NCBI GenBank assembly: GCA_049433545.1
Contig: JBMTEY010000001.1
Coordinates: 1 to 58,458, forward strand
Source of the DNA: Burkholderiales bacterium
GTDB taxonomy: Bacteria > Pseudomonadota > Gammaproteobacteria > Burkholderiales > SG8-41
Direction of reading: 5' to 3'
DNA: 58,458 nt
The position numbers were made by a program, and so were the translations under genes. Under the pieces are notes generated by a model, which saw only the letters and a program-made list of their open reading frames with translations, was not told the origin of the DNA and made no database searches. The first letter of the stretch is position 1. Every line of letters begins with the position of its first letter. This document shows positions 17,400 through 57,005 of this stretch, piece after piece.

Positions 17400-17559
17400 G
17401 TCGTCGCCGCCATGCCGCGTTGACAGCGCACGACCGTTCTTACAGAATCGCCTGCGCTATCACGGGGGCGTTGGCAGACTCCCCGGTTCCAGACGCTCCG
17501 CGTCCAAGTGCTGCCTTCGTGTGCTGTTGGCGCCGATGCGCCAACGCGAAGGAGACCTG

Positions 17560-17904
17560 ATGGACGCCGGTGCAATTCCCCGCATCACCCCGCAGCAGCT
17601 CATGGCCTTGAGTGAACAGTCACCGGCGCCGTTGATCATCGACGTGCGCCGCGAAGCGGTTTTCCAGGCCGCCCCCGACCGGATCAGCGGCGCCCTGCGC
17701 CATGATCCGGCGACAGTCGCCGACTGGGCCGGCACGCTGCCGGCCTCCGCACGCATCGTGGTGTATTGCGTGCACGGCCACGAGGTCAGCCAGAACGCGG
17801 CCCGCGCCCTGCATGAGCACGGACTGGCTGCGCAGTTCCTCGAAGGCGGCATCGAAGCCTGGCGCGCCGCGGGCGGCAGACTGCAATCCAACAGTCGCAC
17901 GTAG
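17560..17904 (+). CDS. Single-domain rhodanese-like sulfurtransferase
   Basis: IIDVRREAVF...IVVYCVHGHEVSQNAA (active-site Cys loop). The ATG at 17560 is preceded by GGAG. Confidence 0.75.
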   Translation: MDAGAIPRITPQQLMALSEQSPAPLIIDVRREAVFQAAPDRISGALRHDPATVADWAGTLPASARIVVYCVHGHEVSQNAARALHEHGLAAQFLEGGIEAWRAAGGRLQSNSRT

Positions 17905-17908
17905 AGCC

Positions 17909-19252
17909 ATGACCCCTGATGCGCAGGACGCCACGCCGGCCGCGATCCCTTTCCGCGAAGCCTTCCGCTTCTGGCTGAAGCTCGGCTTCATCAGCTTCGG
18001 CGGGCCCGCCGGCCAGATCGCGATCATGCACGAGGAGCTGGTCGAACGCCGGCGCTGGATATCCGAGCGCCGCTTCCTGCATGCTCTGAACTACTGCATG
18101 GTGCTGCCCGGCCCCGAAGCGCAGCAGCTCGCCACCTACATCGGCTGGCTGATGCACCGGACCTGGGGCGGCATCGTCGCCGGCGGCCTGTTCGTGCTGC
18201 CCTCGCTGTTCATCCTGATCGCGCTGACGTGGATCTACATGGCCTGGGGCGACGTGCCGGCGATCGCCGGCATCCTCTACGGCATCAAGCCCGCAGTCAC
18301 CGCCATCGTCGTCGTCGCCGCGCTGCGCATCGGCATGCGCGCGCTGAAAAACGGCGTATTGTGGGGCATCGCCGCAGCGGCCTTCATCGCGCTGTTCGCA
18401 CTGAACCTGCCGTTCCCGCTGATCGTGATCGGCGCCGGTCTCATCGGCGCCGTCTGCGGCCGCGTGGCGCCGGCGCTGTTCGCCACCGGCGGCGGGCACG
18501 GCGCCGACGGCAAAAGTTACGGTGCGGCGGTGATCGACGACGACACGCCGACGCCGCAGCATGCGCTGTTCACCTGGAAACGTTTTGCCGCGGTGCTCGC
18601 TTTCGGACTGCTGCTGTGGACCGCGGCGATGGCACTGCTGATGGCAACGTACGGTTGGCAGGGCACGCTGACACAGATGGGCTGGTTCTTCACCAAGGCC
18701 GCGCTGCTGACCTTCGGCGGCGCCTATGCCGTGCTGCCCTATGTCTACCAGGCCGCAGTCGAGCACTACCAGTGGGTCACGCCGCTGCAGATGATCGACG
18801 GCCTCGCGCTCGGCGAAACCACGCCCGGACCGCTGATCATGGTGGTGGCCTTCGTCGGCTTCGTCGGCGGCTGGGCCACGCAGTTCCTCGGCGCCGACAG
18901 CCTGTTCCTTGCCGGCGCGCTGGCGGCGACCGTGGTCACCTGTTTCACCTTCCTGCCGAGCTTCATCTTCATCCTGCTCGGCGGCCCGTTGGTCGAAACC
19001 ACCCACGGTGACCTCAAGTTCACTGCGCCGCTGACCGGCATCACCGCAGCGGTGGTCGGCGTGATCCTCAACCTCGGGGTGTTTTTTGCGTACCACGTGC
19101 TGTGGCCAAAGGGCCTGCAGGGCGCGTTCGACTGGACGTCGGCGGTAATCGGCATCGCCGCCTTCCTCGCGCTGTGGCGATTCAAGGTCGGCATCATGCC
19201 GGTGATCGGCGCCTGCGCCGCGCTCGGCGCGGCGTGGACGCTGCTGGCCTGA
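17909..19252 (+). CDS. chrA: Chromate ion transporter (CHR family)
   Basis: FREAFRFWLKLGFISFGGPAGQIAIMHEELVERRRWISERRFLHALNYCMVLPGPEAQQLA, with a second CHR repeat (TFGGAYAVLPYV...GETTPGPL). ATG at 17909. Confidence 0.9.
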   Translation: MTPDAQDATPAAIPFREAFRFWLKLGFISFGGPAGQIAIMHEELVERRRWISERRFLHALNYCMVLPGPEAQQLATYIGWLMHRTWGGIVAGGLFVLPSLFILIALTWIYMAWGDVPAIAGILYGIKPAVTAIVVVAALRIGMRALKNGVLWGIAAAAFIALFALNLPFPLIVIGAGLIGAVCGRVAPALFATGGGHGADGKSYGAAVIDDDTPTPQHALFTWKRFAAVLAFGLLLWTAAMALLMATYGWQGTLTQMGWFFTKAALLTFGGAYAVLPYVYQAAVEHYQWVTPLQMIDGLALGETTPGPLIMVVAFVGFVGGWATQFLGADSLFLAGALAATVVTCFTFLPSFIFILLGGPLVETTHGDLKFTAPLTGITAAVVGVILNLGVFFAYHVLWPKGLQGAFDWTSAVIGIAAFLALWRFKVGIMPVIGACAALGAAWTLLA

Positions 19253-25794: not shown

Positions 25795-27024
25795 CTAGCC
25801 ACGCCCGGCGCTGTCCACCCGATCGATCACGGCCCGCGGAATCAGGCTCAGCTTCACCAGAGGCTTCAGTGATTCATCGCTGCTCTGCTTGCAGAACTCG
25901 CGGATCGCAAGGAATGCCCGTGCCGCCGCCGTGTCGTTCCAGAACCACTGGTCGATGGCCTTCGCCGCGAGATTGCCGGGCTGCGCCGCGGCAGCCTCGA
26001 AATAGTACGCCTTGACGTCGTCGCAGGCGCGCTTCACCGCGACCCCGGCGCTCATGCCGGCGACGACGGGCAGTACGGGCGCATCGTCGAGATAAGCCAG
26101 CACGTGATTCACTGCGTCGTCCACCGTCGCGCCGAACACGCCCACGGTGGTGCGGCCGCGCCGTTTGCGCGCCAGGTCATACCATGGAGCCAGTTGCGCA
26201 ACCTCGTCGCGTAGGGCCTGGGCCAGTCCGCCCGCGCCGGTTTTGGCCGCGGCAAAGCTCACCGGGCAGGCAAATCCGGAATCAGCGGATGCGGCATCCG
26301 GCGCATCCTCCGGAAAATCCTCCAGCACCGGGCCTGATTTTTTTTCGAACAGGGCCAGCAGGCTGCGCAGCACCCTGCGCTGGAAGTCCGCTTCATTCGG
26401 GGAACCGAAGGGACGGCCGAGCATGAACGGCACCCACAACGCGCGCGACGGTTTGATCGCCGCGGTCTGCTCACGGATCAGGCTGATCTGCGCCGTCGCC
26501 ACGCCTTCGCGCTCGAGGTAGTGTCCGAGTGCGCCCACGGCGCACGTGCAGTTGGGTCAGACCGGTGTCAGCAATACCGCATCCACCTTGTCCTTTTTCA
26601 GCAGCGCCGCGAGCTCGCGGGCCTTGGCCTCGAGGGCTCGGACCGGCGCCGCGCCCATGAAAGCATAGTGATAGTCCGACACCGATCCCACCACGCCTTC
26701 AGCCTGCAGTTCTCGCAGGCGGTCAAGCGGAAACACCACGTTGACGTCTTCCTGGAAGCCGCTGCGGTCGAAGTTCACCGAGCTGTGGCTCATGATCAGG
26801 TCGGCGTGCGGCGTATCGCCAGGGATCACGCGGTAATCCGCCGCGCCCGGCGGAAACGGCCGGTCTCCGCGCACGTGCACCCCGGAGGTGGTGATGATCG
26901 CCACCCGGCGCTCGCGCAGCGGCGGCCCGGGCACGAACGGCGTCGCGCCGAAATCCGGCAGGTCGCGGATCTTGTCGAGATGGTGCTGCCGCTCAAATTC
27001 CGGAAGATCGCTCAATCGCGCCAT
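25795..27024 (-). CDS. GrdB/PrdB-family reductase selenoprotein-B homologue. One 409-residue frame with Sec (UGA) at codon 156 (comp. 26557-26559)
   Basis: ORF-track pieces 26557-27024 and 25795-26538 are in the same frame and separated only by one TGA. Read-through gives ...DKVDAVLLTPV-U-PNCTCAVGALGHYLEREGVATAQISLIRE... The N-terminal part (VAIITTSGVHVRGDRPF...DYRVIPGD...VVFPLDRLREL) looks GrdB/PrdB-like. A hairpin follows the UGA. Confidence 0.8.
26529..26559 (-). promoter_or_regulatory. UGA plus candidate bacterial SECIS hairpin (GrdB/PrdB-like gene)
   Basis: Minus strand: UGA, then 11 nt (CCCAACUGCAC), then a perfect 7-bp stem GUGCGCC / GGCGCAC with a GUG loop (26529-26545). Confidence 0.7.
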
Positions 27025-27052: not shown

Positions 27053-27667
27053 TCAGCGCTGATGCTTGCCCAAGTTCCAGCCGCTTTTCGCCAGGTGTTT
27101 CTCGCCGACGTGGATAGGCTCCTCCTCCAGCGGCGTCGCCATGGTGTCGTTCCAGCGGTTGAGGAAACCGAAGTTTGCTATGACTGCCACGATTTCCACG
27201 ATCTGCCCTTCGCTCCAGTGCTTCTTGAGTTCGGCGAACATCTCGTCTGTAACCGCATTGGGCTGTGCCGCGCCGGCAATCGCAACTTCCAGTGCCGCAC
27301 GTTCCGCCTCGGAAAACAATGAACTGGTGCGAAATTCCCAGACAGCCTCGAGTTTTTCTGCTTCAACGCCCAGCCGGAGCGCCGCCCCGGCAGTGTGCGC
27401 CATTCAGTAATGGCAACCGTGTGCACGGCTCGCGACGTGGGCCAGCATGCGTTTGAACGCCACCGTCACTTCACCCTGCGGATCCCATACCGCAGCAGCG
27501 AGCTGGGCCATAGCCAGAACCAGTTTGGGTTTGCGTTGCATGATCAGCATGCTGTTCGGCACGAAACCCAGCGTTCGCGTGTAGGTCTTGAACGCCTCCT
27601 GCAGTTCCGGTACGGCATCCTGCGGCAGGGGCGCAAGCCGCGGATCGGGTCGGTCATTTTGTTTCAT
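27053..27667 (-). CDS. AhpD/carboxymuconolactone-decarboxylase-like peroxidase-related selenoprotein. 204 residues with Sec (UGA) at codon 88 (comp. 27404-27406)
   Basis: ORF-track pieces 27404-27739 and 27053-27403 are in frame across a single TGA. Read-through gives HVASRAHGCHY-U-MAHTAG, which aligns with EVASNAAGCRYCTAHNAE of the Cys paralogue at 28786-29382. The similarity runs on both sides of the TGA. ATG 27667 is preceded by GGAGGA. Confidence 0.85.
27373..27406 (-). promoter_or_regulatory. UGA plus candidate SECIS hairpin (AhpD-like gene)
   Basis: Minus strand: UGA, then 12 nt (AUGGCGCACACU), then stem GCCGGGG / CUCCGGC (7 bp, one G-U pair) with loop CGGCG (27373-27391). Confidence 0.6.
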
Positions 27668-27683: not shown

Positions 27684-28289
27684 TCAAGATTGTTTCGTCG
27701 GGTTCGGGTATTCAAGGCAGCGCAGCAGATTGCAGGCAATGGAATTCAACGCATCGCGGTCCGGATTGACCTTGCCGAACAGTCGCAATCCCTGGATGCC
27801 CGCAACCAGGAAACGGGCCAGCGCACGGACGTCAGCGTCGTCGGAAATTTCCCCGCGCCCCTGCCCGCGTGCCAGCGCTTCGGCAAACGAAACTTCGATG
27901 CGCTCCAGGCTGCGCCGGACCTTGACTGCAGTGGCATGATCGCGTCGCGCCAGTTCGGCGGCGCAGTTGCCGATGAAGCACCCGCGCCGCCCCGGGCCGG
28001 CGACGATGCGGTCTATCAGTTCGCCGACGAATCCGGCAATCGCATCCTGCACCGGCAGCGGCCGTTGCAGCGCGGTGTTGATGCGGGCCAGTCCCTGTTT
28101 TTCATAACGCTCGAGAGAACGGTGCAGCAGCGCGCGCTTGCCGCCGAATGTCGCATACAGGCTGGAGCGGCTGAGTCCGGTGGCCGCACACAGGTCGTCG
28201 AGCGACGTCGCTTTGTAGCCCTTGGCCCAGAACGCCTGCATCGCCTGTTCCAGTGCAATGTCGGGCTCGAACTCACGATGCCTTGCCAT
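27684..28289 (-). CDS. TetR/AcrR-family transcriptional regulator
   Basis: ALEQAMQAFWAKGYKATSLDDLCAATGLSRSSLYATFGGKRAL is a TetR N-terminal HTH. 201 aa. Confidence 0.88.
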   Translation of the reverse strand: MARHREFEPDIALEQAMQAFWAKGYKATSLDDLCAATGLSRSSLYATFGGKRALLHRSLERYEKQGLARINTALQRPLPVQDAIAGFVGELIDRIVAGPGRRGCFIGNCAAELARRDHATAVKVRRSLERIEVSFAEALARGQGRGEISDDADVRALARFLVAGIQGLRLFGKVNPDRDALNSIACNLLRCLEYPNPTKQS

Positions 28290-28292
28290 TAT

Positions 28293-28748
28293 TTATTTGA
28301 CAGCGCCTGCCGCCAGTCCGTTGAGCGCCTTGCGCAGATTCTGCGTCACCGCGCCGCAATCCCCGCCCTGCTTGTGGCGTGCGGCGAGAAACTGCGGATC
28401 GTTGTATCCCAGCCACACCTGTCCGGAGGCATCCTGCCAAGCCAGCGCCTTCAGCAGCAGATCAATGCCGCTGGACTGCGCGCACAGCATCAAAGGCGTG
28501 CCGCCCTGGGGATTGCCGAACACCAGCAATTCCGTCGGGCGCAGTTCCTTGCCGATTTTTTTCGCGCCGGCGGCATGATCCACGCGCAGGAAGATATTGA
28601 GTCCCTTGCCCTTGGCGGCCGCCTCGAAGCGGTCGAGGGTGTCCTTGACGCTGTGCGGGCTCTTCAGGGCGATCAGGCCGTCGGCAGACCATGCGGAAAA
28701 CGGCAGCAGCGACAGCAGCAATACAGCGGCAATACGCATCCTGTTCAT
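28293..28748 (-). CDS. DUF302-domain protein with signal peptide
   Basis: MNRMRIAAVLLLSLLPFSAWSA is a signal peptide. PTELLVFGNPQGGTPLM...IDLLLKALAWQD...VWLGYNDPQFLAARH is the DUF302 pattern. Confidence 0.8.
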   Translation of the reverse strand: MNRMRIAAVLLLSLLPFSAWSADGLIALKSPHSVKDTLDRFEAAAKGKGLNIFLRVDHAAGAKKIGKELRPTELLVFGNPQGGTPLMLCAQSSGIDLLLKALAWQDASGQVWLGYNDPQFLAARHKQGGDCGAVTQNLRKALNGLAAGAVK

Positions 28749-28785: not shown

Positions 28786-29382
28786 CTACTTGGCATGCAC
28801 CCCGGGATTCCAACCCGAAGCGGCGAGATGCTTGCGGGCAAATTCCAGCGGATGTTCCTCGAGTTGGGTTGCCAGCGTGTCGTTCCAGCGGTTGAGCCAG
28901 CCGAAGAACGAAATCACCGACACGATTTCGATGATCGCATCTTCCGAGAAATGTTTCTTCAACTCGTCGAAATGGGCATCCGTGGCGGACGGCGGACAGC
29001 CGCCGGCGGCCAGTGCCAGGCTGAGGGCAGCGCGCTCGGCCGCGGTGAACAGAGGACTGGTCTGGAACTGCCACAACGCATGCAGCTTTTCCTCGGGAAC
29101 CTTGCCGCGCTCGACCACGTTTTCGGCGTTATGCGCAGTGCAGTAGCGACAACCGGCGGCATTGCTGGCGACTTCCGCCACCATCAGGCGCAGCGCCGTC
29201 GGCACCTCGCCCGCATCGGCCATCACCGCTTCGCGCAGGGTCTGGATGGCGCGAAACACTTTCGGCCGCCGCGCCAGCGTCAGCCAGCTGTTGGGCACGT
29301 AACCGCGCTGTTTTTTCGATTTTTCGAAATCCGCCGCGAACTCGGCGATGCGTTCTGCTGAAGCCGATGAGACTCTGGCCAT
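28786..29382 (-). CDS. AhpD/CMD-like peroxidase-related protein (Cys form, CxxC). Resembles the rSAM/ArsS-associated peroxidase-like family
   Basis: GYVPNSWLTLARRPKVF...VASNAAGCRYCTAHN...IIEIVSVISFFGWLNRWNDTLATQLEE. ATG 29382 is preceded by GGAGGA. It is a paralogue of 27053-27667 and divergent from the radical SAM gene. Confidence 0.82.
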   Translation of the reverse strand: MARVSSASAERIAEFAADFEKSKKQRGYVPNSWLTLARRPKVFRAIQTLREAVMADAGEVPTALRLMVAEVASNAAGCRYCTAHNAENVVERGKVPEEKLHALWQFQTSPLFTAAERAALSLALAAGGCPPSATDAHFDELKKHFSEDAIIEIVSVISFFGWLNRWNDTLATQLEEHPLEFARKHLAASGWNPGVHAK

Positions 29383-29458
29383 TCCATTTCCTCCGGTTAA
29401 TCGTGTTTGCCCGGCGCGGCAATTTGGTTTGACTGCGCGCCGCGGGCGGCTGACGGTT

Positions 29459-29500
29459 TTCAATGTCTTGCCGCATCGACCTATTATAGAATGATCGTTC
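29459..29500 (+). promoter_or_regulatory. Candidate sigma70 promoter and near-palindromic operator for the radical SAM operon
   Basis: TTCAAT (29459-29464), a 17-nt spacer, then TATTAT (29482-29487). This is immediately followed by GAATGATCGTTC (29489-29500), which matches its own reverse complement at 10 of 12 positions. Confidence 0.3.
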
Positions 29501-29653
29501 CAGAATACAACCGTTGCCGTTTCGGCTCATCCCGGTAAACAAGCAGGCAGCGTCACGGTACGGGGCGAATCGTGATATGAAGCCGGTTGTAAGGAACGCC
29601 CGGAAATTCCGACCGATGGTTTTTGCTGTAAACCGAGTTCCAGGAGCCGTTTG

Positions 29654-30619
29654 ATGCATGCCACCCTGCCCTTGATGGAAGCCAGTGATTTCCCGGCGAT
29701 CCGCCGCCGGCGCACCGAAACGCTGCAGGTTAACCTCGGTTACAAGTGCAACCAGAGCTGCCTGCACTGCCACGTCAACGCCGGTCCCACCCGCACTGAA
29801 CTGATGTCGCAGGAAACCATCCTCGACGTGATCGCCTATCTGCAGTCCGCCGGCATCGGCACACTGGATGTCACCGGAGGCGCGCCGGAGCTGAACCCCC
29901 ATTTCCGCTCTCTGGTCGAAACCGCGCGCAAGCTCGGCATACGCGTCATCGACCGCTGCAACCTGACCATCCTGTTTGAACCCGGACAGGAAACACTCGC
30001 GCAATTCCTTGCCGGTCAACAGGTTGAAATCACCGCCTCGCTGCCGTGTTATTCCGCAGACAATGTCGACCGCCAGCGCGGCAAGGGCGTATTCGACGCC
30101 AGCATCCGTGCGCTGCAACTGCTGAACGGACTCGGTTACGGCCGGCCCGGTTCCGCGCTGAAACTGAACCTGGTCTACAACCCGCAGGGTCCGGTGCTGC
30201 CCCCCGCCCAGCCGCAGCTCGAGCTCGATTACAAAAAACGACTGGCCGACGACCATGGCATCGTGTTCAATGAACTGTATGTCATCACCAACATGCCGAT
30301 CCAGCGCTTCGGCAGCACGCTGGTCTCCAGGGGACAGTTCAATCAGTACATGAGCCTGCTGAAAAACGCCTACCAGCCGGCCAACCTGGAATCGGTGATG
30401 TGCCGCACGCAACTCTCGGTCGACTGGCAGGGATTTGTCTACGACTGCGATTTCAACCAGATGCTCGATCTGCCGCTGGCGTGGAAACATCGGCCACGCA
30501 CCCACCTGCGCGAGTTGATAGGGGCCGATCCCGCGGGTAACCCCATCGTGGTCAGGGACCACTGTTACGGCTGCACCGCCGGCCAGGGTTCCAGCTGCGG
30601 CGGCGCACTGGTCGACTGA
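29654..30619 (+). CDS. arsS: Radical SAM / Cys-rich C-terminal domain protein (ArsS / TIGR04167-like; Cys rather than Sec in the C-terminal motif)
   Basis: LQVNLGYKCNQSCLHCHVNAG (CxxxCxxC radical SAM cluster). The C-terminal Cys-rich tail reads VVRDHCYGCTAGQGSSCGGALVD. Confidence 0.8.
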   Translation: MHATLPLMEASDFPAIRRRRTETLQVNLGYKCNQSCLHCHVNAGPTRTELMSQETILDVIAYLQSAGIGTLDVTGGAPELNPHFRSLVETARKLGIRVIDRCNLTILFEPGQETLAQFLAGQQVEITASLPCYSADNVDRQRGKGVFDASIRALQLLNGLGYGRPGSALKLNLVYNPQGPVLPPAQPQLELDYKKRLADDHGIVFNELYVITNMPIQRFGSTLVSRGQFNQYMSLLKNAYQPANLESVMCRTQLSVDWQGFVYDCDFNQMLDLPLAWKHRPRTHLRELIGADPAGNPIVVRDHCYGCTAGQGSSCGGALVD

Positions 30620-30640
30620 CAGCCATCCCCGTCCTGAGGC

Positions 30641-32032
30641 ATGACGATGATAGAACCGATTTTCGCGGTGTATTTCTGGGGTTTCCTGATCCTCTACGGC
30701 GGCGTGATGTACGCCATCTCGCCGCAGTCCCGCACCAGCGCCAGCTTCTTCACCGGCAGCGACGATGCCGGCCGCCCGGCGACCGAATGGGCCCTGATCT
30801 GCAGCATCTTCATCAGCTGGATATTCGCCAAATCGGTGACCAATGCAGCCAACCTCGGTGCCGCCTACGGCATCGTCGGCGGGCTGGCCTATGCCATGTA
30901 CTGGCTGTCGATACCGGTCGCCGGCATCGTCATCTACCGTTTGCGCACGCGCCATGGCGCAACCGGCCTGGTATCGTTCCTGATCGGCCGCTACGGGCGG
31001 CTGGCGGCGCTGGCGTTCACGCTCGCCATCCTGATCCGGCTCTACAACGAAGTGTGGAGCAACACCGCGGTCGTCGGCGCCTATTACGGAAAGGCCGGAG
31101 AGTGGACCTTCATCGCCTCGGCGCTGCTGTTTACTGCGGCCACTCTTTTCTACAGCATGAAGGGCGGACTGCGCAGTTCGATAGTCACCGACGTGATCCA
31201 GGCCGTGCTGTTCGTCATCGTGCTCGGCGTGGTGCTGTTCCTGGTCTTGCCCAAGCACGGACTGGGCACGCTGCTGTCGGTGGGTGATTTCCGGCTCAAC
31301 GCCGGCGTCGACCTGCTGCTGGTGGCGCTGCTGCAGGTGGTGTCATACCCGTTCCACGACCCGGTGCTCACCGACCGCGGCTTCATCACCCGCGAAAAAA
31401 CCATGCTGCGCGCGATGATCGTCGCCGGCGTGCTCGGCTTCATCTGCATTTTCGCCTTCAGCCTGGTCGGCGTGCACGCCAAACTCGAAGGTCTGCCGAC
31501 CGGCGACAACATGCCCGGCGCGGTGGCGCTGGCCTTCGGCACCCTGCCCTACCTGATGATGACCGTGGTGATGATCATGGCGGCGGGCTCGACGCTGGAC
31601 TCGACGTTTTCGTCGGTCGCCAAGTCCATCGGCCAGGAACTGCCGATGCTCGCCGGGCGGCTGCCGGGACCGCGTGCGATGGTCATCGGCATGTGGACCA
31701 TGCTGGCGTTCGCGATACTCGGCAACCTGCCGATGATCGCCGGCACCGACATCCTCAAGGCCACCACGGTCAGCGGCACCATGGTGATGGGCCTGGCGCC
31801 GGTGTTCCTGCTGGCGCCGCTGGTTAAACATTCGCCATGGAGTTTCCATCTCGCATTTTGGCCTGGCGTGATCCTCGGTGTCCTGCTCGCAGGCGGCGGC
31901 ATTCCGCAGGCCTGGGCCATCGGTGACGGCAAATATGCGCTGCTGCTCGGCACCAACCTCTACGGTCTGCTGATCTGCATTGCCGGCTTCCTCGCGCCGG
32001 TGATATGGCAGCGGCTGCGCGCGGCACGCTGA
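30641..32032 (+). CDS. Sodium:solute symporter (SSS) family transporter, substrate unknown
   Basis: 463-aa polytopic protein. SMKGGLRSSIVTDVIQAVLF resembles the SSS signature. It begins 21 nt after arsS. Confidence 0.7.
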   Translation: MTMIEPIFAVYFWGFLILYGGVMYAISPQSRTSASFFTGSDDAGRPATEWALICSIFISWIFAKSVTNAANLGAAYGIVGGLAYAMYWLSIPVAGIVIYRLRTRHGATGLVSFLIGRYGRLAALAFTLAILIRLYNEVWSNTAVVGAYYGKAGEWTFIASALLFTAATLFYSMKGGLRSSIVTDVIQAVLFVIVLGVVLFLVLPKHGLGTLLSVGDFRLNAGVDLLLVALLQVVSYPFHDPVLTDRGFITREKTMLRAMIVAGVLGFICIFAFSLVGVHAKLEGLPTGDNMPGAVALAFGTLPYLMMTVVMIMAAGSTLDSTFSSVAKSIGQELPMLAGRLPGPRAMVIGMWTMLAFAILGNLPMIAGTDILKATTVSGTMVMGLAPVFLLAPLVKHSPWSFHLAFWPGVILGVLLAGGGIPQAWAIGDGKYALLLGTNLYGLLICIAGFLAPVIWQRLRAAR

Positions 32033-32036
32033 CCGC

Positions 32037-33029
32037 ATGCAACCCGGACGCAGCTGCCCCCTGCACTACCGCTATGCGCCGCAATCGCTGCGCCGGCCGC
32101 CGGAAATCCTGGCCGACACGCTGTATGTGATCGGCGGACTCTACGGCAACCTTCCCGCGTTGCAGGCCGTATCTGCGCTGGCCGCGGCCGAGCCGGAGCC
32201 GGTGGCGCTGGTGTTCAACGGCGACTTCAACTGGTTCAACATCGACGGCGGCGGATTTTCGGCGATCAATGAAACCGTGCTGCAACACCACGCGCTGCGC
32301 GGCAACGTTGAAACCGAACTCGCCGGGGATGACGATGAGGCGGGCTGCGGCTGCGCCTATCCGGACAGCGTCGGCGACGAGGAAGTCGCCCGCTCCAATG
32401 CCATGCTCGCGCAGTTGCGCGCCACCGCGCGCAGGTTTCCGGACCTGCGCTCCCAGCTCGCCGCGCTGCCGATGAACCGGGTCGCCGAAGTCGGCGGCCT
32501 GCGCATTGCCATCGTACACGGCGACTGTGAATCGCTGGCCGGCTGGTCGTACGACGAATCGGCTTTCCGCGGCACCACCGGCAGCACGCGCCTCGCCGCA
32601 CATTTCGCCGCCAGCGGCGCGCGCATCATCGCCAGCAGCCACACCTGCCTGCCGGTGGCGCTGCGCCAGCGCAGGCCACAGGGCGACTGCGCGCTGTTCA
32701 ACAACGGCGCGGCCGGCATGCCCAATTTCGCCGGCACCCAATTCGGGGTGATCACGCGGATAGCAACCACCCCCGCGCGCCCATCGGCCGCGCTCTACGG
32801 CACAGTCATCCATGGCGTGCACATTGATGCGCTGGCCGTGCACTACGATTCCGCACAATGGCAACAGGACTTCGCAGCCAACTGGCCGGCCGGCAGCGCC
32901 GGATACCTGTCCTATCACCGGCGCATCACCCAGGGCCCGCGCCACGGCATCAACAAGGCCCTGCACAAGGGCATCCACCTCAATCCTGAACTGCTGCGCG
33001 GACTGCGCGCCAGCGAGGCGATTCAATGA
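32037..33029 (+). CDS. Hypothetical protein with degenerate metallophosphoesterase-like motifs
   Basis: LYVIGGLYGN, VFNGDFNWFN, LRGNVE, IVHGD and SSHTC loosely follow calcineurin-like phosphoesterase motif order, but the first motif lacks the canonical Asp/His. It begins 4 nt after the transporter gene. Confidence 0.5.
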   Translation: MQPGRSCPLHYRYAPQSLRRPPEILADTLYVIGGLYGNLPALQAVSALAAAEPEPVALVFNGDFNWFNIDGGGFSAINETVLQHHALRGNVETELAGDDDEAGCGCAYPDSVGDEEVARSNAMLAQLRATARRFPDLRSQLAALPMNRVAEVGGLRIAIVHGDCESLAGWSYDESAFRGTTGSTRLAAHFAASGARIIASSHTCLPVALRQRRPQGDCALFNNGAAGMPNFAGTQFGVITRIATTPARPSAALYGTVIHGVHIDALAVHYDSAQWQQDFAANWPAGSAGYLSYHRRITQGPRHGINKALHKGIHLNPELLRGLRASEAIQ

Positions 33030-35158
33030 AAAAAAGCAAACTGCTGGTATTCGCACTGATCGCCGCGGGCATCGTCGCGTTTTTTGCATTCGACCTGAAG
33101 CAGTACTTCACCCTGGATTATTTCCAGGCACAGCGCGCGGCGATCGATGCCGAAGTCCAGTCCCGGCCGTTGCGCTCGGCCCTGCTGTTTTTTGCCGCCT
33201 ATGTCGCGGTCACCGGGCTGTCGCTGCCGGGTGCCGCCATCATGACGCTGGTGGCGGGCGCGGTGTTCGGCCTGCTGTGGGGCACGATCATCGTGTCATT
33301 CGCCTCGACTTTGGGTGCCACGCTGGCCTTCCTCGCCTCTAGATTCCTGCTGCGCGACTGGGTGCAGGACAAATTCGGCGACAAGCTGCGGCCGATCAAC
33401 GACGGCATCGCGCGCGAAGGCGGTTTTTACCTGTTTGCGCTGCGCCTGGTGCCGGCCTTTCCGTTTTTCGTGATCAACCTGGTGATGGGCCTGACGTCCA
33501 TCCGCACCTGGACCTACTACTGGGTCAGCCAGCTCGGCATGTTTGCCGGCACCGTGGTATACGTCTACGCCGGCACCCAGCTCGGGGAATTCCGCATTTC
33601 GGCGGGACTGATCGGCGCCTTCGTGCTGCTGGGCCTGTTCCCGCTCGCCGCGAAAAAAACCCTGGACGCGCTGAAGGCGCGCAAGGTCTACGCCGGCTGG
33701 AACCGGCCCGCGCGTTTCGACCGTAACCTCGTCGTCATCGGCGCCGGCTCGGCAGGGCTGGTCTCCGCCTACATCGCTGCGGCGGTGAAAGCGAAAGTGA
33801 CGCTGGTCGAGAAACACAGGATGGGCGGCGACTGCCTGAACACCGGCTGCGTGCCGTCCAAGGCGCTGATCAAGTCGGCGAAACTGCTGGCGACCATGAA
33901 ACACGCCAGCAACTACGGCCTGAAGGACACGCAGGTGGATTTCGACTTTGCCGAGGTCATGGAACGCGTGCAACGCGTGGTCCGTAAAGTCGAGCCCCAT
34001 GATTCCGTCGAACGCTACACCGCGCTGGGCGTCGAATGCATCAGCGGCGAGGCAAAGATCACTTCGCCGTGGAGCGTCGAAGTGAAAACCCCCGCGGGCG
34101 CGCAGACGCTGACCACGCGCGGCATTGTCATTGCCGCCGGCGCGCGCCCCTTCGTGCCGCCGATACCCGGGATCAACGATGTCGGCTGCCTGACCTCTGA
34201 CACGGTGTGGGAACTGCGCACACTGCCGAAACGCCTGGTGGTGCTCGGCGGCGGCCCGATCGGCTGCGAACTGACGCAGTGTTTCGCCCGTCTAGGCTCA
34301 CAGGTCATCCAGGTCGAGATGCTTCCGCGGATCATGATCCGCGAGGATCCGGAAATTTCCGACATGGTGCTGCAGAAATTCCGTGCCGAAGGCGTCAGCG
34401 TGCTGGTGAACCACAAGGCGCAGCGCTTCGCGGTCGAAAACGGTGAAAAAGTCCTGTACTGCGAAAACGAAGGCCGCGAAGTGCGCATCACCTTCGACGC
34501 ACTGCTGTGCGCGGTCGGCCGCGTCGCCAACACCTCAGGCTACGGCCTCGAGGAACTCGGTATCCCGGTGACGAAATCGCGCACCGTCGAAGTCAACGAA
34601 TTCCTGCAGACCAGATACCCGAACATCCTCGTTTGCGGCGATGTCGCCGGACCGTACCAGTTCACCCACACCGCGGCGCACACCGCCTGGTATGCCGCGG
34701 TCAACGGCCTGTTCGGCGGGTTCAAAAAATTCCGTGTTGATTACTCGGTGATCCCCTGGGCCACGTTTACCGACCCCGAAGTCGCGCGCGTCGGCCTCAA
34801 TGAAACCGAGGCCAGGGAAAAAAACATTTCCTGCGAAGTCACCACCTACGGCATCGACGACCTCGACCGCGCCATCGCTGACGGTACTGCGCACGGCATG
34901 GTCAAGGTATTGACCGTGCCCGGCAAGGACAAGATCCTGGGCGCCACCATCGCAGGCGAGCATGCCGGCGACCTGATCACCGAATTCGTCACCGCAATGA
35001 AACACGGCATCGGACTCAACAAGATCCTCGGTACCATCCACATCTACCCGACGCTCGCCGAAGCCAACAAGTACGTGGCAGGGAACTGGAAGCGCGCACA
35101 CGCGCCCCAAGCATTGCTGGAATGGGTGGAGAAGTTTCATGCGTGGCGGCGAGGATAA
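33026..35158 (+). CDS. Fusion protein: TVP38/TMEM64 (DedA-like) membrane domain plus FAD-dependent pyridine nucleotide-disulfide oxidoreductase (mercuric/glutathione reductase-like)
   Basis: The N-terminal ~220 aa are multi-TM (VSFASTLGATLAFLASRFLLRDWV...LRLVPAFPFFVINLVMG). These are followed by LVVIGAGSAGLVSAY, the redox-active GGDCLNTGCVPSK, a second Rossmann motif VVLGGGPIGCE, and a dimerisation domain. ATGA overlap with the upstream gene. Confidence 0.85.
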   Translation: MKKSKLLVFALIAAGIVAFFAFDLKQYFTLDYFQAQRAAIDAEVQSRPLRSALLFFAAYVAVTGLSLPGAAIMTLVAGAVFGLLWGTIIVSFASTLGATLAFLASRFLLRDWVQDKFGDKLRPINDGIAREGGFYLFALRLVPAFPFFVINLVMGLTSIRTWTYYWVSQLGMFAGTVVYVYAGTQLGEFRISAGLIGAFVLLGLFPLAAKKTLDALKARKVYAGWNRPARFDRNLVVIGAGSAGLVSAYIAAAVKAKVTLVEKHRMGGDCLNTGCVPSKALIKSAKLLATMKHASNYGLKDTQVDFDFAEVMERVQRVVRKVEPHDSVERYTALGVECISGEAKITSPWSVEVKTPAGAQTLTTRGIVIAAGARPFVPPIPGINDVGCLTSDTVWELRTLPKRLVVLGGGPIGCELTQCFARLGSQVIQVEMLPRIMIREDPEISDMVLQKFRAEGVSVLVNHKAQRFAVENGEKVLYCENEGREVRITFDALLCAVGRVANTSGYGLEELGIPVTKSRTVEVNEFLQTRYPNILVCGDVAGPYQFTHTAAHTAWYAAVNGLFGGFKKFRVDYSVIPWATFTDPEVARVGLNETEAREKNISCEVTTYGIDDLDRAIADGTAHGMVKVLTVPGKDKILGATIAGEHAGDLITEFVTAMKHGIGLNKILGTIHIYPTLAEANKYVAGNWKRAHAPQALLEWVEKFHAWRRG

Positions 35159-51893: not shown

Positions 51894-52502
51894 TCAGGAC
51901 GGCGCGGTATCGCGGAACGACTGCCGCTGCGCGAGTTTCTCGGCGAGCCGCGCCAGGTTGGGATGGCTGCGCCGCCACGGCTGGTCGGGCAGGCGCAGGT
52001 CGAGGAAACCCAGGCAGCAGCCGACGGCGATGTCCGCCAGCGTGAAAAAATCCCCCGCGCACCACGGCTTCGCAGCCAGTTCGTCGGCCAGCGCCTGCAA
52101 CGCGCGATCGATCTTGCCCTGCTGACGCGCAATCCACTCCAGCGACTGCTGCGATTCGTCGCGGCGCCGTTCCACGAAAATCGCCACGCCCGCATCCGTG
52201 CAGCCGTCGGCCAGCGCCTCCCAGCGCCGCACCTGGATACGCGGGCGTTTTTCTTCGGGGATCAGGCGGTTGCCCGGGCTCGCGTTGTCGATGTATTCGA
52301 CGATCACGCGCGAATCGAACAGCGTGCTTTCATCATCCAGCACCAGTACCGGGATTTTCCCTAGCGGATTCAATTGCGCAACAGTGCTTGAAGGCGTGTT
52401 CGGCGCATCGACGACGAACTCGTGTTCGAGGCGCTTTTCAATCAAGGCAATGCGCGCCTTGCGGGTATAGGGACTCGTCGGCGTCCCGATCAGCTTCATC
52501 AT
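51894..52502 (-). CDS. Glutathione S-transferase family protein
   Basis: MMKLIGTPTSPYTRKARIALIEKRLEHEFV...LNPLGKIPVLVLDDESTLFDSRVIVEYI (GST N-domain). Only the last 202 codons of ORF-track entry 51894-53420 are used. Confidence 0.82.
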   Translation of the reverse strand: MMKLIGTPTSPYTRKARIALIEKRLEHEFVVDAPNTPSSTVAQLNPLGKIPVLVLDDESTLFDSRVIVEYIDNASPGNRLIPEEKRPRIQVRRWEALADGCTDAGVAIFVERRRDESQQSLEWIARQQGKIDRALQALADELAAKPWCAGDFFTLADIAVGCCLGFLDLRLPDQPWRRSHPNLARLAEKLAQRQSFRDTAPS

Positions 52503-52625
52503 GTGGATTGCTTGGAGGATTGCGGAATAAAAAGCGCGCGGATTATAGCACCGCCATCCTTGACGCAAGACGCCACCGAACGTACGCTTGGCGCTCCTCC
52601 CCAACCGCCTGCAAAGAGGTCGCAC

Positions 52626-53396
52626 ATGGGCGCCACCGAACAGTTCGTGCTCTTTACCCAACCCGGGTGAAGTAGCTGTCTCCGGGCGAAAGAGTTTCTT
52701 TCGCGCAAAAAAATCGATTTCGTCGCCATCGACGTGCTGAACGATCCCGCCGGCCGTGAACGCCTGCTCAAATTCGGCGTGCGCAACGTACCGGTGGTTG
52801 CCCGCGGCGACCAGTTCGTGTTCGGACAGAACCTGGAAGACGTCGCCGAGTTCGTCGGCCTCCAGGGCACCGGCCACAAACCGCTGCCGCCTGAAGAACT
52901 GATCCGCAGATGGGTGCTGGTGCTGCGCGCCGCACAGCGTTTCATGCGGCAGATGCCCGACGGCAAACTGAATGAGCTGGTCATCGACAACCGTGACCGC
53001 TCGATCCGGTTGATGGGCCATCATGTGTTCCGCATCGGCGAGGCGTACCTGGAATCGGTCGAAAGCGGCGTGGAATACGCCGTGCAGCTCGCCAATGTGC
53101 CGCCGAAAGACGGCACCTTCACCAGCGGCGATGAAATCGCGCGTTACGGCGACACCGTCATCGCACGCCTCGAGAACTGGTGGAACAAGCTCGAAGACAA
53201 ATCCTGCCAGCAGAAGATCAAGACCTTCTTCGGCATGCAGCCCATCCACATGCTCTACGAACGCTCGACCTGGCACAGCGCGCAGCACGTACGGCAACTC
53301 GCCGCGGTGCTCGAACGCTTCGGCATAACCCCTGACGGAAAACTCACCGCGGAAGATCTGGCCGGTTTGCCTCTGCCCGAGCGGCTTTGGGAATAA
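52626..53396 (+). CDS. Glutaredoxin-like (UxxC) / DinB-superfamily fusion selenoprotein. 256 residues with Sec (UGA) at codon 15 (52668-52670)
   Basis: My translation across the TGA, in the frame of ORF 52734-53396, gives MGATEQFVLFTQPG-U-SSCLRAKEFLSRKKIDFVAIDVLNDPAGRERLLKFGVRNVPVV. This is a Grx fold with U at the first CxxC position. It is followed by a DinB-like His-rich helical domain (GHHVFRIGE...TWHSAQHVRQL). AGAGG RBS. Confidence 0.8.
52668..52704 (+). promoter_or_regulatory. UGA plus candidate SECIS hairpin (Grx-DinB gene)
   Basis: UGA, then 15 nt, then a perfect 7-bp stem GCGAAAG / CUUUCGC with loop AGUUU (52686-52704). Confidence 0.6.
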
Positions 53397-53425
53397 TTGT
53401 TTAAAATCAAATAGTTGCAATAAAT

Positions 53426-53454: not shown

Positions 53455-53480
53455 GCCGCGCGGCAGGCATGCGCTACACT
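53453..53480 (+). promoter_or_regulatory. Candidate promoter for selA-selB
   Basis: TTGCCG (53453-53458), a 16-nt spacer, then TACACT (53475-53480). Confidence 0.35.
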
Positions 53481-53576
53481 GCGTCTTCGTTATTCCAAGC
53501 CGCAATTTTCCGCAGCAAACCCCGCACTGATCTGCAGCCCGATGACTCCGATGCCACGCCGCATGGCCACGCCGCC

Positions 53577-54980
53577 ATGGTGAATCCCGCTGAAGCCGCG
53601 CGTCGCGCGTTGCCTTCGGTCGATCGCCTGCTCGGCAGTAGCGCGGTGGCGGACCTCATCACGACCTACGGCCGTACCCGCGTAACCGCAGTGCTGCGCG
53701 ATGCGCTCGACGCCGAGCGCGCAAGGCTGGCGCACCCTGATGCCGCCGCCTGGAACGAAACCACTTTCCTGAAAACCTATGCCGCACTGCTGCGAGATTC
53801 CGTCGCCCCCTCGCTGAAACCGGTGTTCAACCTCACCGGCACCGTGCTGCACACCAACCTCGGCCGCGCGGTGATGCCGCAGAGCGCCGCCGCCGCGGTG
53901 ATGGCGGCGATGACCAACCCGGTGAACCTCGAATTCGATCTCGCTACCGGTACCCGCGGCGAACGCGACAGCCATGTCGAACGCCGCCTGATCCAGCTCA
54001 CCGGCGGCGAGAAGGCGGTGGCCGTCAACAACAACGCCGCGGCGGTCTATCTCGCTCTGAACACGCTGGCGCTGAAACGCGAAGTGCTGGTGTCGCGCGG
54101 CGAACTGATCGAAATCGGCGGCGCCTTCCGCATCCCCGACATCATGTCACGCGCCGGAGTGAAACTGGTCGAAGTCGGCACCACCAACCGCACCCACCTC
54201 AAGGACTATGCCGAGGCGATCACGCCGCGCACCGCCGCGATCATGAAGGTGCACACCAGCAATTACGTGGTGCAGGGATTCACCGCGGCAGTGCCCGAGC
54301 CGGAACTGGCGAAACTCGCGCATGAACACGATCTGCCGTTCATCGTCGACCTCGGCAGCGGCACGCTGATCGACCTCGAGCACTACGGCCTACCGCACGA
54401 GCCGACGCCGCGCGAAGCACTCGCCAACGGCGCAGACGTCGTCACCTTCAGCGGCGACAAGCTGCTCGGCGGCCCGCAGGCCGGCCTGCTGACCGGTCGC
54501 CGCGACCTGATGGCGCGCATCGCCAAAAACCCGATGAAACGCGCGCTACGCCTCGACAAGCTGACGCTGGCTGCGCTCGACGCCGTGCTGCGGCTCTACC
54601 TGCACCCCGAACGCCTGCATGAGGAACTGCCTGCACTGCGCTGGCTGACACGCACCCCGGAAGACATGGCGGCACAGGCCGCGCGCCTGCAGCCGGCACT
54701 GGCAGCGGCACTGGGGGAACAGTGGAAAGTCGAGACCGTTGACTGCAAATCGCAGATCGGCAGCGGCGCGCTGCCGGTCGACTCGCTGCCGGGCAAGGCC
54801 CTCGCCGTCAGCCCCGCCGTGAAAAAAGGCAACCTCAACAAGCTCGCCGCCGCCTTTCGCGACCTGCCGCTGCCGGTGATCGGCCACATCCGCGACGGCG
54901 CGCTGGTGTTCGACCTGCGCTGCCTGGACCGCGAGGACGAATTTGCGGCGCAACTGCAACAGCTGAAGATCCCGAAATGA
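53577..54980 (+). CDS. selA: L-seryl-tRNA(Sec) selenium transferase
   Basis: LPSVDRLLGS...NLTGTVLHTNLGRA...NNNAAAVYLAL...GGAFRIPDIM...FSGDKLLGGPQAG (PLP Lys). I prefer the start at 53577. The ORF-track ATG at 53469 would lie upstream of the candidate -10 box. Confidence 0.92.
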   Translation: MVNPAEAARRALPSVDRLLGSSAVADLITTYGRTRVTAVLRDALDAERARLAHPDAAAWNETTFLKTYAALLRDSVAPSLKPVFNLTGTVLHTNLGRAVMPQSAAAAVMAAMTNPVNLEFDLATGTRGERDSHVERRLIQLTGGEKAVAVNNNAAAVYLALNTLALKREVLVSRGELIEIGGAFRIPDIMSRAGVKLVEVGTTNRTHLKDYAEAITPRTAAIMKVHTSNYVVQGFTAAVPEPELAKLAHEHDLPFIVDLGSGTLIDLEHYGLPHEPTPREALANGADVVTFSGDKLLGGPQAGLLTGRRDLMARIAKNPMKRALRLDKLTLAALDAVLRLYLHPERLHEELPALRWLTRTPEDMAAQAARLQPALAAALGEQWKVETVDCKSQIGSGALPVDSLPGKALAVSPAVKKGNLNKLAAAFRDLPLPVIGHIRDGALVFDLRCLDREDEFAAQLQQLKIPK

Positions 54981-56995
54981 TCATCGCCACCGCGGGTCAC
55001 ATCGACCACGGCAAGACGCTGCTGGTCAAAACCCTGACCGGCACCGACACCGACCGCCTGCCCGAGGAAAAGGCGCGCGGCATCTCGATCGACCTCGGCT
55101 TCGCCTACCTGCCGCTGGACGGCGGCGGCCTGATCGGTTTTGTCGACGTCCCGGGCCACGAACGCTTCATCCGCAACATGCTCGCCGGCGTGTCGGGCAT
55201 CGATTATGCGCTGCTGGTGGTCGCCGCGGACGACGGCGTAATGCCGCAGACCGTCGAACACCTGCAGATCCTCGACCTGCTGCATATCCGCCGTGGAGCG
55301 GCAGTCATTACAAAAATCGACCGTGTCGATGCCGCGCGCGTCGAGCAGGTCAGCGCCCAGGTGCGTGCACTGCTGGCGCCGACGCGGCTCGCCGATGTCG
55401 CGATCCACCCGGTGTCTGCGGTCAGCGGCGCCGGCATGGCCGAACTGAAGACAGTGCTGCTGCGCGAAGCTGCGGCGCAGAACCAGCGCAGCGCCGAAGG
55501 ACAGCACCTGCGTTACGCCATCGACCGGGCGTTCAGCATCGCCGGCAGCGGCACCGTAGTCACCGGCACGGTGTTCAATGGCAACGTAAGAACCGGCGAC
55601 AAGCTGGTGATTTCACCCGCGGGACGCGAAGTGCGCGTGCGCAGCATCCAGATCCACGGCAAAGCCGCGGACCAGGCGCGCGCCGGCGAACGCTGCGCGC
55701 TGAACCTGACCGGCGCCGACGTCGAATCGGTGCGCCGGGGCGACTGGGTAATGGCTGCGGCGATCCACCGACCGACGCAGAAACTCGACGTGCGGCTGAG
55801 CGTGCTGCAGGCCGAGGCACATCCGCTGAAGCACTGGACGCCGGTGCATCTGCATCTCGCCACCGCCGACGTCACCGCGCGCGTGTCGCTGCGCCGCGGT
55901 GAGGCGCTGGCTCCGGGCAAGGACATCATCGCGCAGCTGGCGCTCGACGAACCGGTATCCGCGCTGCACGGCGACCGTTTCATCCTGCGTGACCAGTCTT
56001 CGACGCGCACCGTCGGCGGCGGCACCATCATTGATCCCGCCCCGCCCGCGGCACGGCGCAGCAAGGCGCGCGACGCCGTGCTCGCCGCGCTGGAGTCCGC
56101 GGACGCCACCAACGCGCTCACCGCGCTGAGCGCCGGCGGCAAACCGGTAGACCTCGCGCACTTTGAAGCGGTCTTCAACCTGCTGCCCGAAGTCGCCGCC
56201 GCGGAATACGCGCGCGCCGACCTCCTGCCGCTGGGCAAGGACCGCCGCATCGCCATCACCGGCACGCGCCTGGCCGCCGTCCACGAAGCCGCCGTCAAAC
56301 AGCTGCGCGCCTTCCACCAGGCGCAGCCACAGGCGACGGGCTTGGAAATCGAAACCCTGCGCGCGACGCTGGCACCTGAACTCGACGGCGACGCCTTCGG
56401 CCATGCGCTGCGCCTGCTCGCCGACAAACGCACGATCGAAATCCACAGTTCGCTCGCGCGTATTCCCGGCCACGACAGCACCGCCAACAGCGCCGATACG
56501 CGGATGTGGGAAACCGTGCAGCCGGTGCTGCTGGCGGCCGGCTTCAATCCGCCGCCGCTGAAGGAACTGGCGCCGCTGCTGAAAATCAAGGATGCGCTGC
56601 TCAAGGATTTTCTGTATCGCCAGACGAAGGCCGGCAATCTCTACCGCGTTGGCGCCGAAAGGTTTTACCTCAAAAACACCATGGCCGTGCTGGCCGCGAC
56701 AGCGCAAGCAGTCTGCGCAAAACAGCCGAGCGGCCAGTTCACCGCGGCACAGTACCGCGACGCCACCGGCATAGGCCGCACGCTGGCGATCGAGATTCTC
56801 GAAACGCTGGACTCACTGACCGTCACCCAGCGCATCGGTGACGCGCGCAAGATGCGCAAGGACTTCGCGCCCATACTCGGCGCCGCCGATCCGGCGCCAC
56901 CGCCACCGCCGGGTGCTGCAGCCAAGGCACAGTCGCAGAAGCCGGCGGCGCACAAACCGCAGCAACGCCCCCCTTTCCGCAACAAACGTTATTGA
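54977..56995 (+). CDS. selB: Selenocysteine-specific translation elongation factor
   Basis: [44 protein letters not shown]...DVPGHERFI...TKID, plus winged-helix C-terminal domains. ATGA overlap with selA. It carries an unusual Pro/Lys/Gln-rich tail of about 40 aa. Confidence 0.93.
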
Positions 56996-57005
56996 AAGAG
57001 CAATC

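Follow-up and report, generated by a model that had tools for sequence, protein, structure and literature searches.

The D-proline reductase subunit PrdB of Clostridium sticklandii and Clostridioides difficile (model TIGR04483) and the GrdB, GrdF and GrdH proteins (TIGR01917/TIGR01918, NF040794/NF040795) are the closest described counterparts of a gene found on the minus strand, at positions 25795-27024, of a 58,458-nucleotide stretch of DNA from a Burkholderiales bacterium (GenBank assembly GCA_049433545.1, contig JBMTEY010000001.1), the whole of which is referred to here as the window. A UxxC motif, in which U is selenocysteine (Sec), is common to PrdB and GrdB (PMC13188914). We present evidence that the region is very probably one gene, which encodes a PrdB/GrdB-like selenoprotein of 409 residues with a redox role.

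Selenoproteins named after PrdB have been reported from several surveys. The Sargasso Sea survey of Zhang and Gladyshev in 2005 listed 42 'proline reductase PrdB' genes (PMC1088965), and the Global Ocean Sampling survey of 2008, in which 'PrdB' was defined by a pfam07355 match together with a UxxC motif, counted 235 Sec and 110 Cys forms (PMC2398784). In oxic surface water, 'PrdB' is among the most abundant selenoprotein families (PMC1088965; PMC2398784). 'Proline reductase' selenoproteins of Anaeromyxobacter and Geobacter were counted in a 2006 survey (PMC1794560). Because Sec in PrdB-like proteins outside the Clostridia is already on record, the window gene extends a known family. The window protein falls under the survey definition, with its pfam07355 match and a predicted Sec-containing UxxC, and its family, too, has members in marine Alpha- and Gammaproteobacteria and in SAR324; the survey sequences presumably belong to the same subfamily.

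Compared with PrdB, the window protein is alike over nearly the whole PrdB length of ~240 residues, and in both a UxxC motif holds the (here predicted) Sec, with a bacterial Sec insertion sequence (SECIS) directly downstream. It differs in scoring below the TIGR04483 cut-off, in its length of 409 residues as opposed to the ~240 of the single-domain PrdB, and in an extra helical domain of ~180 residues. Neither a PrdA proprotein, the source of the pyruvoyl group, nor PrdC is encoded near it. In contrast to the clostridial PrdB, its family is hosted by uncultured Burkholderiales-type and other Proteobacteria, and its neighbors are TetR, AhpD-like, GST, TauD and TctC genes.

With GrdB, GrdF and GrdH the window protein shares the Pfam GRDB match and the UxxC motif, whereas the match extends over just the final ~70 profile positions of GRDB, and no GrdE, GrdC or GrdD was found with the window gene. 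Operons with two selenoproteins are recognized for grdA-grdB, for prdB-prdC and for a Prx-like with an AhpD-like gene (PMC13188914). The window gene is likewise paired with a gene for a CxxU selenoprotein, a formal parallel to grdA-grdB; however, this partner has the AhpD/CMD fold (PF02627), unlike GrdA (PF04723), and belongs to the known family of AhpD-like (COG2128/PF02627) CxxU selenoproteins. The pair of an AhpD-like(U) and a PrdB-like(U) protein is absent from the operons listed in the review cited above (PMC13188914).

A UGA codon conserved within the PrdB-like reading frame

The minus-strand frame that starts with ATG at 27024 and ends with TAG at 25797-25795 comprises 410 codons, and TGA 26559-26557, codon 156, is its sole internal stop. 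The elements of the gene on which the argument depends are these:

25795..27024, minus strand: PrdB/GrdB-like coding sequence of the predicted selenoprotein, 409 residues plus TAG 25797-25795, with the ATG at 27024-27022
26557..26559, minus strand: UGA codon 156, predicted to be read as Sec, first residue of U-P-N-C; TGA in 80/80 related loci and Cys in Cys-type homologues
26548..26550, minus strand: codon of Cys159, the UxxC partner of U156; Cys in 194/194 family members
26266..26268, minus strand: codon of Cys253, within an ACP motif where the C-terminal region begins, which may serve as a third redox or ligand residue; Cys in 193/194
26529..26545, minus strand: putative SECIS-type hairpin, with 5' arm GUGCGCC (26545-26539), loop GUG (26538-26536) and 3' arm GGCGCAC (26535-26529)

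A ribosome-binding-like motif, GAAAGGA, is located ahead of the ATG at 27037-27031 (minus strand), and the N-terminus of the protein, MARLSDLPEFER, agrees with those of the full-length homologues. The open reading frame (ORF) at 26557-27024 (minus strand) has a length of 468 nt, or 156 codons counting the TGA. It is followed by six open codons that encode PNCTCA (26556-26539) and then by GTG 26538, with which the ORF at 25795-26538 opens, so that the UGA stands in the context LLTPV-U-PNC. An earlier note on this DNA had claimed that the two ORFs lie in one frame, interrupted by the TGA alone, and that the six codons after it are open; translation confirms the first statement and the sequence at 26556-26539 the second.

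The position was compared among relatives; a scan in which each bacterial species was represented by one genome found 156 of them, and 80 loci were fetched and compared. The codon aligned to 156 is TGA in every one of the 80, at amino acid identities of 46-94% (tblastn), and in these loci a single tblastn alignment crosses the TGA from residue ~1 to ~400, with both flanks conserved. The loci belong to Burkholderiales and other Betaproteobacteria, Alpha- and Gammaproteobacteria, Desulfobacterota, SAR324 and Rokubacteria. The closest (L001), from a metagenome-assembled genome of an uncultured Burkholderiales, is 94% identical and has the same neighbors. L047 comes from a cultured strain, Zwartia hollandica LF4-65, and L038 (OZ257137.1) and L065 (OZ245780.1) belong to complete genomes. 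In a family alignment of 194 sequences, position 156 is TGA in 80 and Cys in 114, and Pro157 is found in 193. In alignment A2, Cys253 is invariant. The full-length homologues, of 415-436 residues, are single polypeptides that carry PV-C-PNC at the Sec site; in P0096 the aligned site reads VCPNC, and in P0021 it reads VCLLC. A stop that is held at one codon over such wide divergence, and swapped solely for Cys, is the signature of selenocysteine, and residue 156 of the window protein is almost certainly Sec. Two tandem PrdB-like paralogues are present in each of four loci (L019, L055, L071 and L077), every one of them with TGA at the aligned codon.

A covarying hairpin downstream of the UGA codon

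The SECIS element of Escherichia coli fdhF is characterized by an 11-nt spacing from the UGA and by G-U in the apical loop, which SelB needs. In the window, the TGA is followed by CCCAACUGCAC-GUGCGCC-GUG-GGCGCAC, a perfect stem of 7 bp, which begins 11 nt after the UGA, with a 3-nt loop, just as the earlier note had described it. The hairpin is the minimum-free-energy structure of a 40-nt stretch. The GTG at 26536-26538 (minus strand), which ORF finders take as the start of a downstream ORF of 247 residues, coincides with its apical loop; this artefact also yields the 'hypothetical proteins' of ~245 residues that are found in databases.

Covariation of the hairpin was computed on alignment A1, which contains 81 sequences without gaps. 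Across the seven proposed pairs, 94% of the cells are paired, and five of the pairs vary on both sides. None of 500 shuffles attains any of the observed measures of pairing or covariation, and pairing falls to 26-65% when the 3' arm is slid by 1-3 columns. Pair 25-39 occurs as UA (48), CG (23), UG (5), GC (2) and AU (1); on its 5' side stands the opening base of a Cys, Arg, Gly or Ser codon, and on its 3' side an Ala codon contributes its silent third position. A silent Ala base that tracks an amino acid change in this way, as from Cys to Arg, is not expected from protein selection alone. In the loop, G31 and U32 do not vary among the 81 sequences. Taken with the spacing, these observations support the hairpin as a bacterial SECIS-type element.

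Two genes of the Sec machinery are encoded in the window, as the earlier note had claimed and the Pfam matches corroborate:

53469-54980, plus strand: selA, selenocysteine synthase (PF03841, 530 bits)
54977-56995, plus strand: selB, SECIS-binding elongation factor (PF00009, PF25461, PF09106, PF09107)

The Sec-containing protein that the note had proposed is thereby upheld by four observations: the TGA in 80/80 loci, the Cys in homologues, the covarying hairpin, and the presence of selA and selB. The latter pair is flanked by two genes of redox type. At 51894-53420 (minus strand) a protein of 508 residues is encoded in which GST domains cover just residues ~308-499 and the N-terminal 300 residues have no match, and at 56838-57914 (plus strand) lies a gene for a thioredoxin-reductase-like flavoprotein. 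In 2 of the 80 related loci, selA is the nearest neighbor of the PrdB-like gene.

Family assignment and the C-terminal domain

The read-through product matches PF07355 (GRDB) with 43.1 bits, above the cut-off of 22, over residues 84-153 and profile positions 275-345 of 347, and U156 aligns with Cys of the full-length homologues; both results agree with the assignment made in the earlier note. The Cys-type homologues carry the PF07355 tag too. The PrdB model TIGR04483 aligns through positions 26-219 of its 238 to residues 35-227 (E 2.6e-31), with 108.9 bits as against a cut-off of 300. The scores are also far below the cut-offs of the models for GrdB (TIGR01917; 48.6 vs 602.2 bits), GrdF (NF040794; 55 vs 800 bits) and GrdH (NF040795; 62.3 vs 775 bits), and the family-wide selenoprotein-B model TIGR01918 is narrowly missed (56.8 vs 65.45 bits). 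Because the PrdB model is aligned over nearly its full length at scores under the cut-off, the N-terminal ~230 residues are, by profile comparison, a divergent PrdB-like domain.

The size of the family was estimated from an exhaustive profile search, with clusters formed at 50% identity. The search retrieved 3502 clusters at E <= 0.001, of which 1857 reach E <= 1e-10 and 465 reach E <= 1e-30. Among the best 150 cluster representatives, 84 are 'proteins' of ~245 residues whose first residue is aligned to profile position 163, just past the UxxC. In these 84, the C-terminal half of a Sec form has been miscalled as a protein, and pieces of this kind and length form most of the matches to the PrdB-like protein in the protein database. 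The split is directly visible in L086, where a gene of 155 residues with the PF07355 tag is followed by an unannotated gene of 245 residues. The expectation of the earlier note that gene callers would divide the gene is thus borne out by public calls, which list a PF07355 fragment of 155 residues and a 'hypothetical protein' of ~245. Since so many of the representatives begin right after the UxxC, hundreds of selenoproteins are filed as hypothetical fragments, the public calls cutting the family at the Sec codon. The note had also described the protein as an orphan member. No grdA, grdE or prdA partner was found nearby, in agreement with that description; yet the protein is not a lone one, as it belongs to a very large family.

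The region that follows the PrdB-like domain is specific to the family:

25798..26335, minus strand: C-terminal domain of ~180 residues (about 231-409), mainly helical, with no match in Pfam or NCBIfam

It is conserved in the Sec and the Cys forms, including residues W281, R289, R291, T292, G295, E343, A344, P349 and G350. For the structure, an AlphaFold2 model of the Cys homologue P0096, which is 48% identical, stands in for the window protein (predicted local distance difference test score (pLDDT) 84; predicted template modeling score 0.84). The C-terminal helices of the model extend over residues 266-428, and C156-P-N-C159 is placed between a strand (149-153) and a helix (159-172). The predicted position of the U/C-x-x-C, with a beta-strand on one side and the N-terminal end of a helix on the other, is the usual geometry of redox-active CxxC centers. 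A search of the PDB by sequence gave no match at E <= 1, and a Foldseek search of the PDB gave none at E <= 0.001. The best Foldseek matches, to alpha/beta domains of the B12-binding and periplasmic-binding types, are weak, and no function can be assigned from the fold.

Gene neighborhood

The PrdB-like gene is the last in a same-strand run of DUF302, TetR, AhpD-like(U) and PrdB-like(U) genes, which are separated by gaps of 3-28 nt, and xseB-ispA-dxs are located downstream of it. The three genes that precede it are the following:

27053-27667, minus strand: AhpD-like/CMD gene (PF02627), with an in-frame TGA at 27406-27404 in the context GCHY-U-MAH, that is, CxxU (predicted); its stop lies 28 nt ahead of the PrdB-like ATG
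27684-28289, minus strand: TetR-family regulator gene (PF00440, PF16925); a TetR relative is near the PrdB-like gene in 18/80 loci
28293-28748, minus strand: DUF302 gene (PF03625), first of the run, present in 6/80 loci

The AhpD-like and PrdB-like genes are probably co-transcribed, and the TetR-family protein probably regulates the cassette. The TGA of the AhpD-like gene is followed, after 12 nt, by a G+C-rich stem of 8 bp with a 3-nt loop that starts with G, and the stem displays compensatory changes, for example GCCGGGGC/GCUCCGGC versus GCUGGGGC/GCUCCAGC. This second, similar combination of TGA and hairpin supports the Sec reading of the PrdB-like gene. An AhpD-like gene is near the PrdB-like gene in 17/80 loci, on either side, and 17 of the 18 adjoining copies have TGA at the same codon. 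The adjacency is kept despite the altered gene order, which argues for a functional coupling of the two proteins in the clade of the window.

The nearest neighbors in the 80 loci were counted for genes confirmed by Pfam, the greedy picking of ORFs being noisy in high-G+C DNA. They include TctC (8), GST (5-6), TetR (4), TauD (3), PrpD (3), HAD (3) and SelA (2). The GrdA, GrdE and PrdA families were found in none of the scanned window ORFs, and GrdA and Gly_reductase (PrdA/GrdE) are absent from the 25 most frequent nearest-neighbor families of the 80 loci. A TauD/TfdA dioxygenase gene adjoins the Sec-type gene in L054, L059, L061 and L075; in the first three it lies ~600-1400 nt ahead of the Sec codon. 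It also adjoins the Cys-type gene in L081-L083 (L081:7261-8112; L082:4369-5274). In P0148-P0150, proteins of 708-724 residues, TauD is fused to the PrdB-like protein (L084:6001-8127, L085:6001-8127). Sulfatase and GST genes recur close to the gene in the marine Cys-type loci.

Several other genes of the surroundings were noted. A radical SAM protein with a DUF3641 domain (ArsS-like) is encoded at 29651-30619 (plus strand), divergently and upstream of the cassette; the ArsS-like radical SAM family (TIGR04167) presumably also has Sec-containing members. The same radical SAM and DUF3641 pair is near the PrdB-like gene in L086, beside an ArsM-like methyltransferase gene. An ORF of 709 residues at 29129-31258 (minus strand), which overlaps the ArsS-like gene on the opposite strand and has no Pfam match, was judged spurious. 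A chrB-b RNA motif (RF03086, 53.3 bits) at 17463-17514 (plus strand) is located just upstream of a gene for a chromate transporter (PF02417) at 17702-19252 (plus strand). The gene at 33026-35158 (plus strand) encodes a protein of 710 residues in which a DedA-type VTT membrane domain is fused to a pyridine nucleotide-disulfide oxidoreductase, and a VTT-domain gene stands between the TauD and the PrdB-like genes in L082 and L083. In L086, genes for an ECF sigma factor and an NrsF anti-sigma factor (L086:4299-5480) are found directly upstream of the split PrdB-like gene, on the same strand, with genes for bufferin (BufA1) and MbnB/DUF692 close by; this arrangement hints at a regulon for metal or oxidative stress.

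Assessment of the selenoprotein reading and its alternatives

The following points weigh against the interpretation of the gene as that of a selenoprotein reductase. The Sec at residue 156 is a prediction from the nucleotide sequence. Relative to shuffles, the folding energies of the 86, 50 and 40 nt that follow the UGA have z values of +0.95, -0.26 and -0.85. Of the 1575 TGA triplets in the window, 13 (0.8%) are followed by a hairpin of the kind described, and in this sequence of 63% G+C a perfect hairpin with a stem of 7 bp or more starts 9-13 nt downstream of 0.56% of all positions. The stem overlaps the conserved peptide TCAVGAL, so that the protein sequence accounts for part of its conservation. 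The hairpin alone is therefore weak evidence, and covariation was used as evidence in place of the folding energy, which is no better than that of the shuffles; it is the TGA in 80/80 loci together with the covariation of the stem that raises the hairpin above chance.

Further points of this kind concern the machinery, the neighborhood and the structure. A gene for tRNA-Sec (selC) was not found in the window by ARAGORN or Rfam, and no scanned window ORF matched the SelD family; these two results neither support nor refute the interpretation, as the genes may lie elsewhere in the genome. The neighborhood is heterogeneous across the family, and the AhpD-like partnership is limited to the clade of the window. 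The structure model depicts the homologue P0096 rather than the window protein, and its most conserved loop, NxDRSGF (model residues 82-90), has a pLDDT below 50.

An alternative that accepts the selenoprotein is that its UxxC would be non-catalytic and would serve as a redox or metal (Se, As, Cr, Hg) sensor or carrier in a stress regulon. The TetR, ArsS-like radical SAM, chromate transporter and VTT-disulfide oxidoreductase fusion genes of the window are consistent with such a role, as are the ECF sigma/NrsF pair and the bufferin genes directly upstream in L086. These neighbors, however, are not conserved across the family, while the fusions and adjacency of TauD suggest an enzymatic partnership and the homology is to catalytic subunits of reductases. 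We consider a sensor or carrier unlikely.

A true subunit of a Stickland-type enzyme, be it PrdB or GrdB/GrdF/GrdH, with PrdA/GrdE and GrdA encoded elsewhere in the genome, would account for the PF07355 match, for the alignment along nearly the entire PrdB model and for the UxxC that is common to PrdB and GrdB (PMC13188914). On the other hand, the scores are far under the curated cut-offs, even if the family-wide selenoprotein-B model is missed by little, and GRDA and Gly_reductase are lacking from the scanned window ORFs and the top 25 neighbor families described above. The window protein has the extra domain of 180 residues, and TetR, AhpD-like, GST, TauD and TctC genes are the neighbors instead. 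The gene occurs mostly in Burkholderiales and in marine Alpha- and Gammaproteobacteria, which to our knowledge are not fermenters of amino acids. Such a subunit is accordingly a very improbable reading of the gene.

Read-through of the UGA without Sec, by a near-cognate Trp or Cys tRNA or through a reassigned code, would be favored by the invariant C that follows the UGA, since a C in this position makes a weak termination context. This is contradicted by the homologues, which have Cys at position 156 and never Trp or Gly, by the many window ORFs that end in TGA, from which the standard code follows, and by the covarying hairpin at a SelB-type distance in a window with selA and selB; the chance of such a read-through is exceedingly small. 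Finally, the TGA as a real stop, whether of a pseudogene or of a gene of 155 residues followed by one of ~247 from GTG 26538, is how public gene calls treat the locus, but we regard it as practically negligible, because a stop is not expected to persist at one codon in 80/80 loci down to 46% identity with conserved flanks, the six codons for PNCTCA that separate the TGA from the GTG are conserved and include the invariant C159, and the Cys-type homologues are single polypeptides.

Proposed mechanism

The selenoprotein interpretation leads to the following scheme. The recoding signals, the relationship to the family and the linkage of the genes are shown above, whereas the redox cycle is inferred, as are the partner protein and the substrate class. 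SelB, encoded 30 kb away in the window, would bind the hairpin 11 nt past UGA-156 and deliver Sec-tRNA, and the insertion of Sec would yield the active-site motif U156-P-N-C159. By analogy with the D-proline reductase PrdB, the selenolate of U156 would attack the substrate or an oxidized partner, and Cys159 would then resolve the adduct into a selenenylsulfide. A partner with a thiol or a selenol would re-reduce the selenenylsulfide; here the AhpD-like CxxU protein would likely do so, and elsewhere proteins of the GST or thioredoxin type. The C-terminal domain, with Cys253 and the R-x-R-T motif (R289, R291, T292), may bind the substrate, which could be anionic, a speculation prompted by the arginines. 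Equally speculatively, the domain may take the substrate-binding role that PrdA/GrdE have in the clostridial enzymes.

By this analogy, the PrdB-like protein would most likely be a U156/C159 selenol/thiol reductase that cycles via a selenenylsulfide. That the UxxC is a catalytic redox center appears likely. The AhpD-like protein, whose gene is linked to it in the clade of the window, might be its direct partner, which we suggest tentatively.

Implications for the family

The marine surveys kept the name and the function of D-proline reductase and made no mention of an additional domain at the C-terminus, of PrdA being lacking, of a pairing with AhpD-like selenoproteins or of fusions to TauD. 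None of these features was found described in PMC9312934 or PMC13188914 or by a text search of the literature, which returned nothing specific to the subfamily of the window protein. The label 'proline reductase' is probably wrong for the family.

A broader proposal, which we regard as possible and rather speculative, is that the 'PrdB' proteins of ~410 residues in aerobic Proteobacteria might be self-contained selenol/thiol reductases and not proline reductases. Their own C-terminal domain would replace the pyruvoyl subunit; the AhpD-fold CxxU protein would act as a GrdA-like relay in one clade, and TauD would be a partner or fusion in another. Such enzymes might serve in reductive bond cleavage or detoxification and would be widespread in bacteria of soil, freshwater and the ocean. 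The family is abundant, yet in selenoproteome surveys it is named after an enzyme of clostridial fermentation that it almost certainly is not. The AhpD-like(U) partner, the TetR control, the adjacency and fusion of TauD, and the domain with Cys253 and R-x-R-T provide leads on the role that it may have in aerobes.

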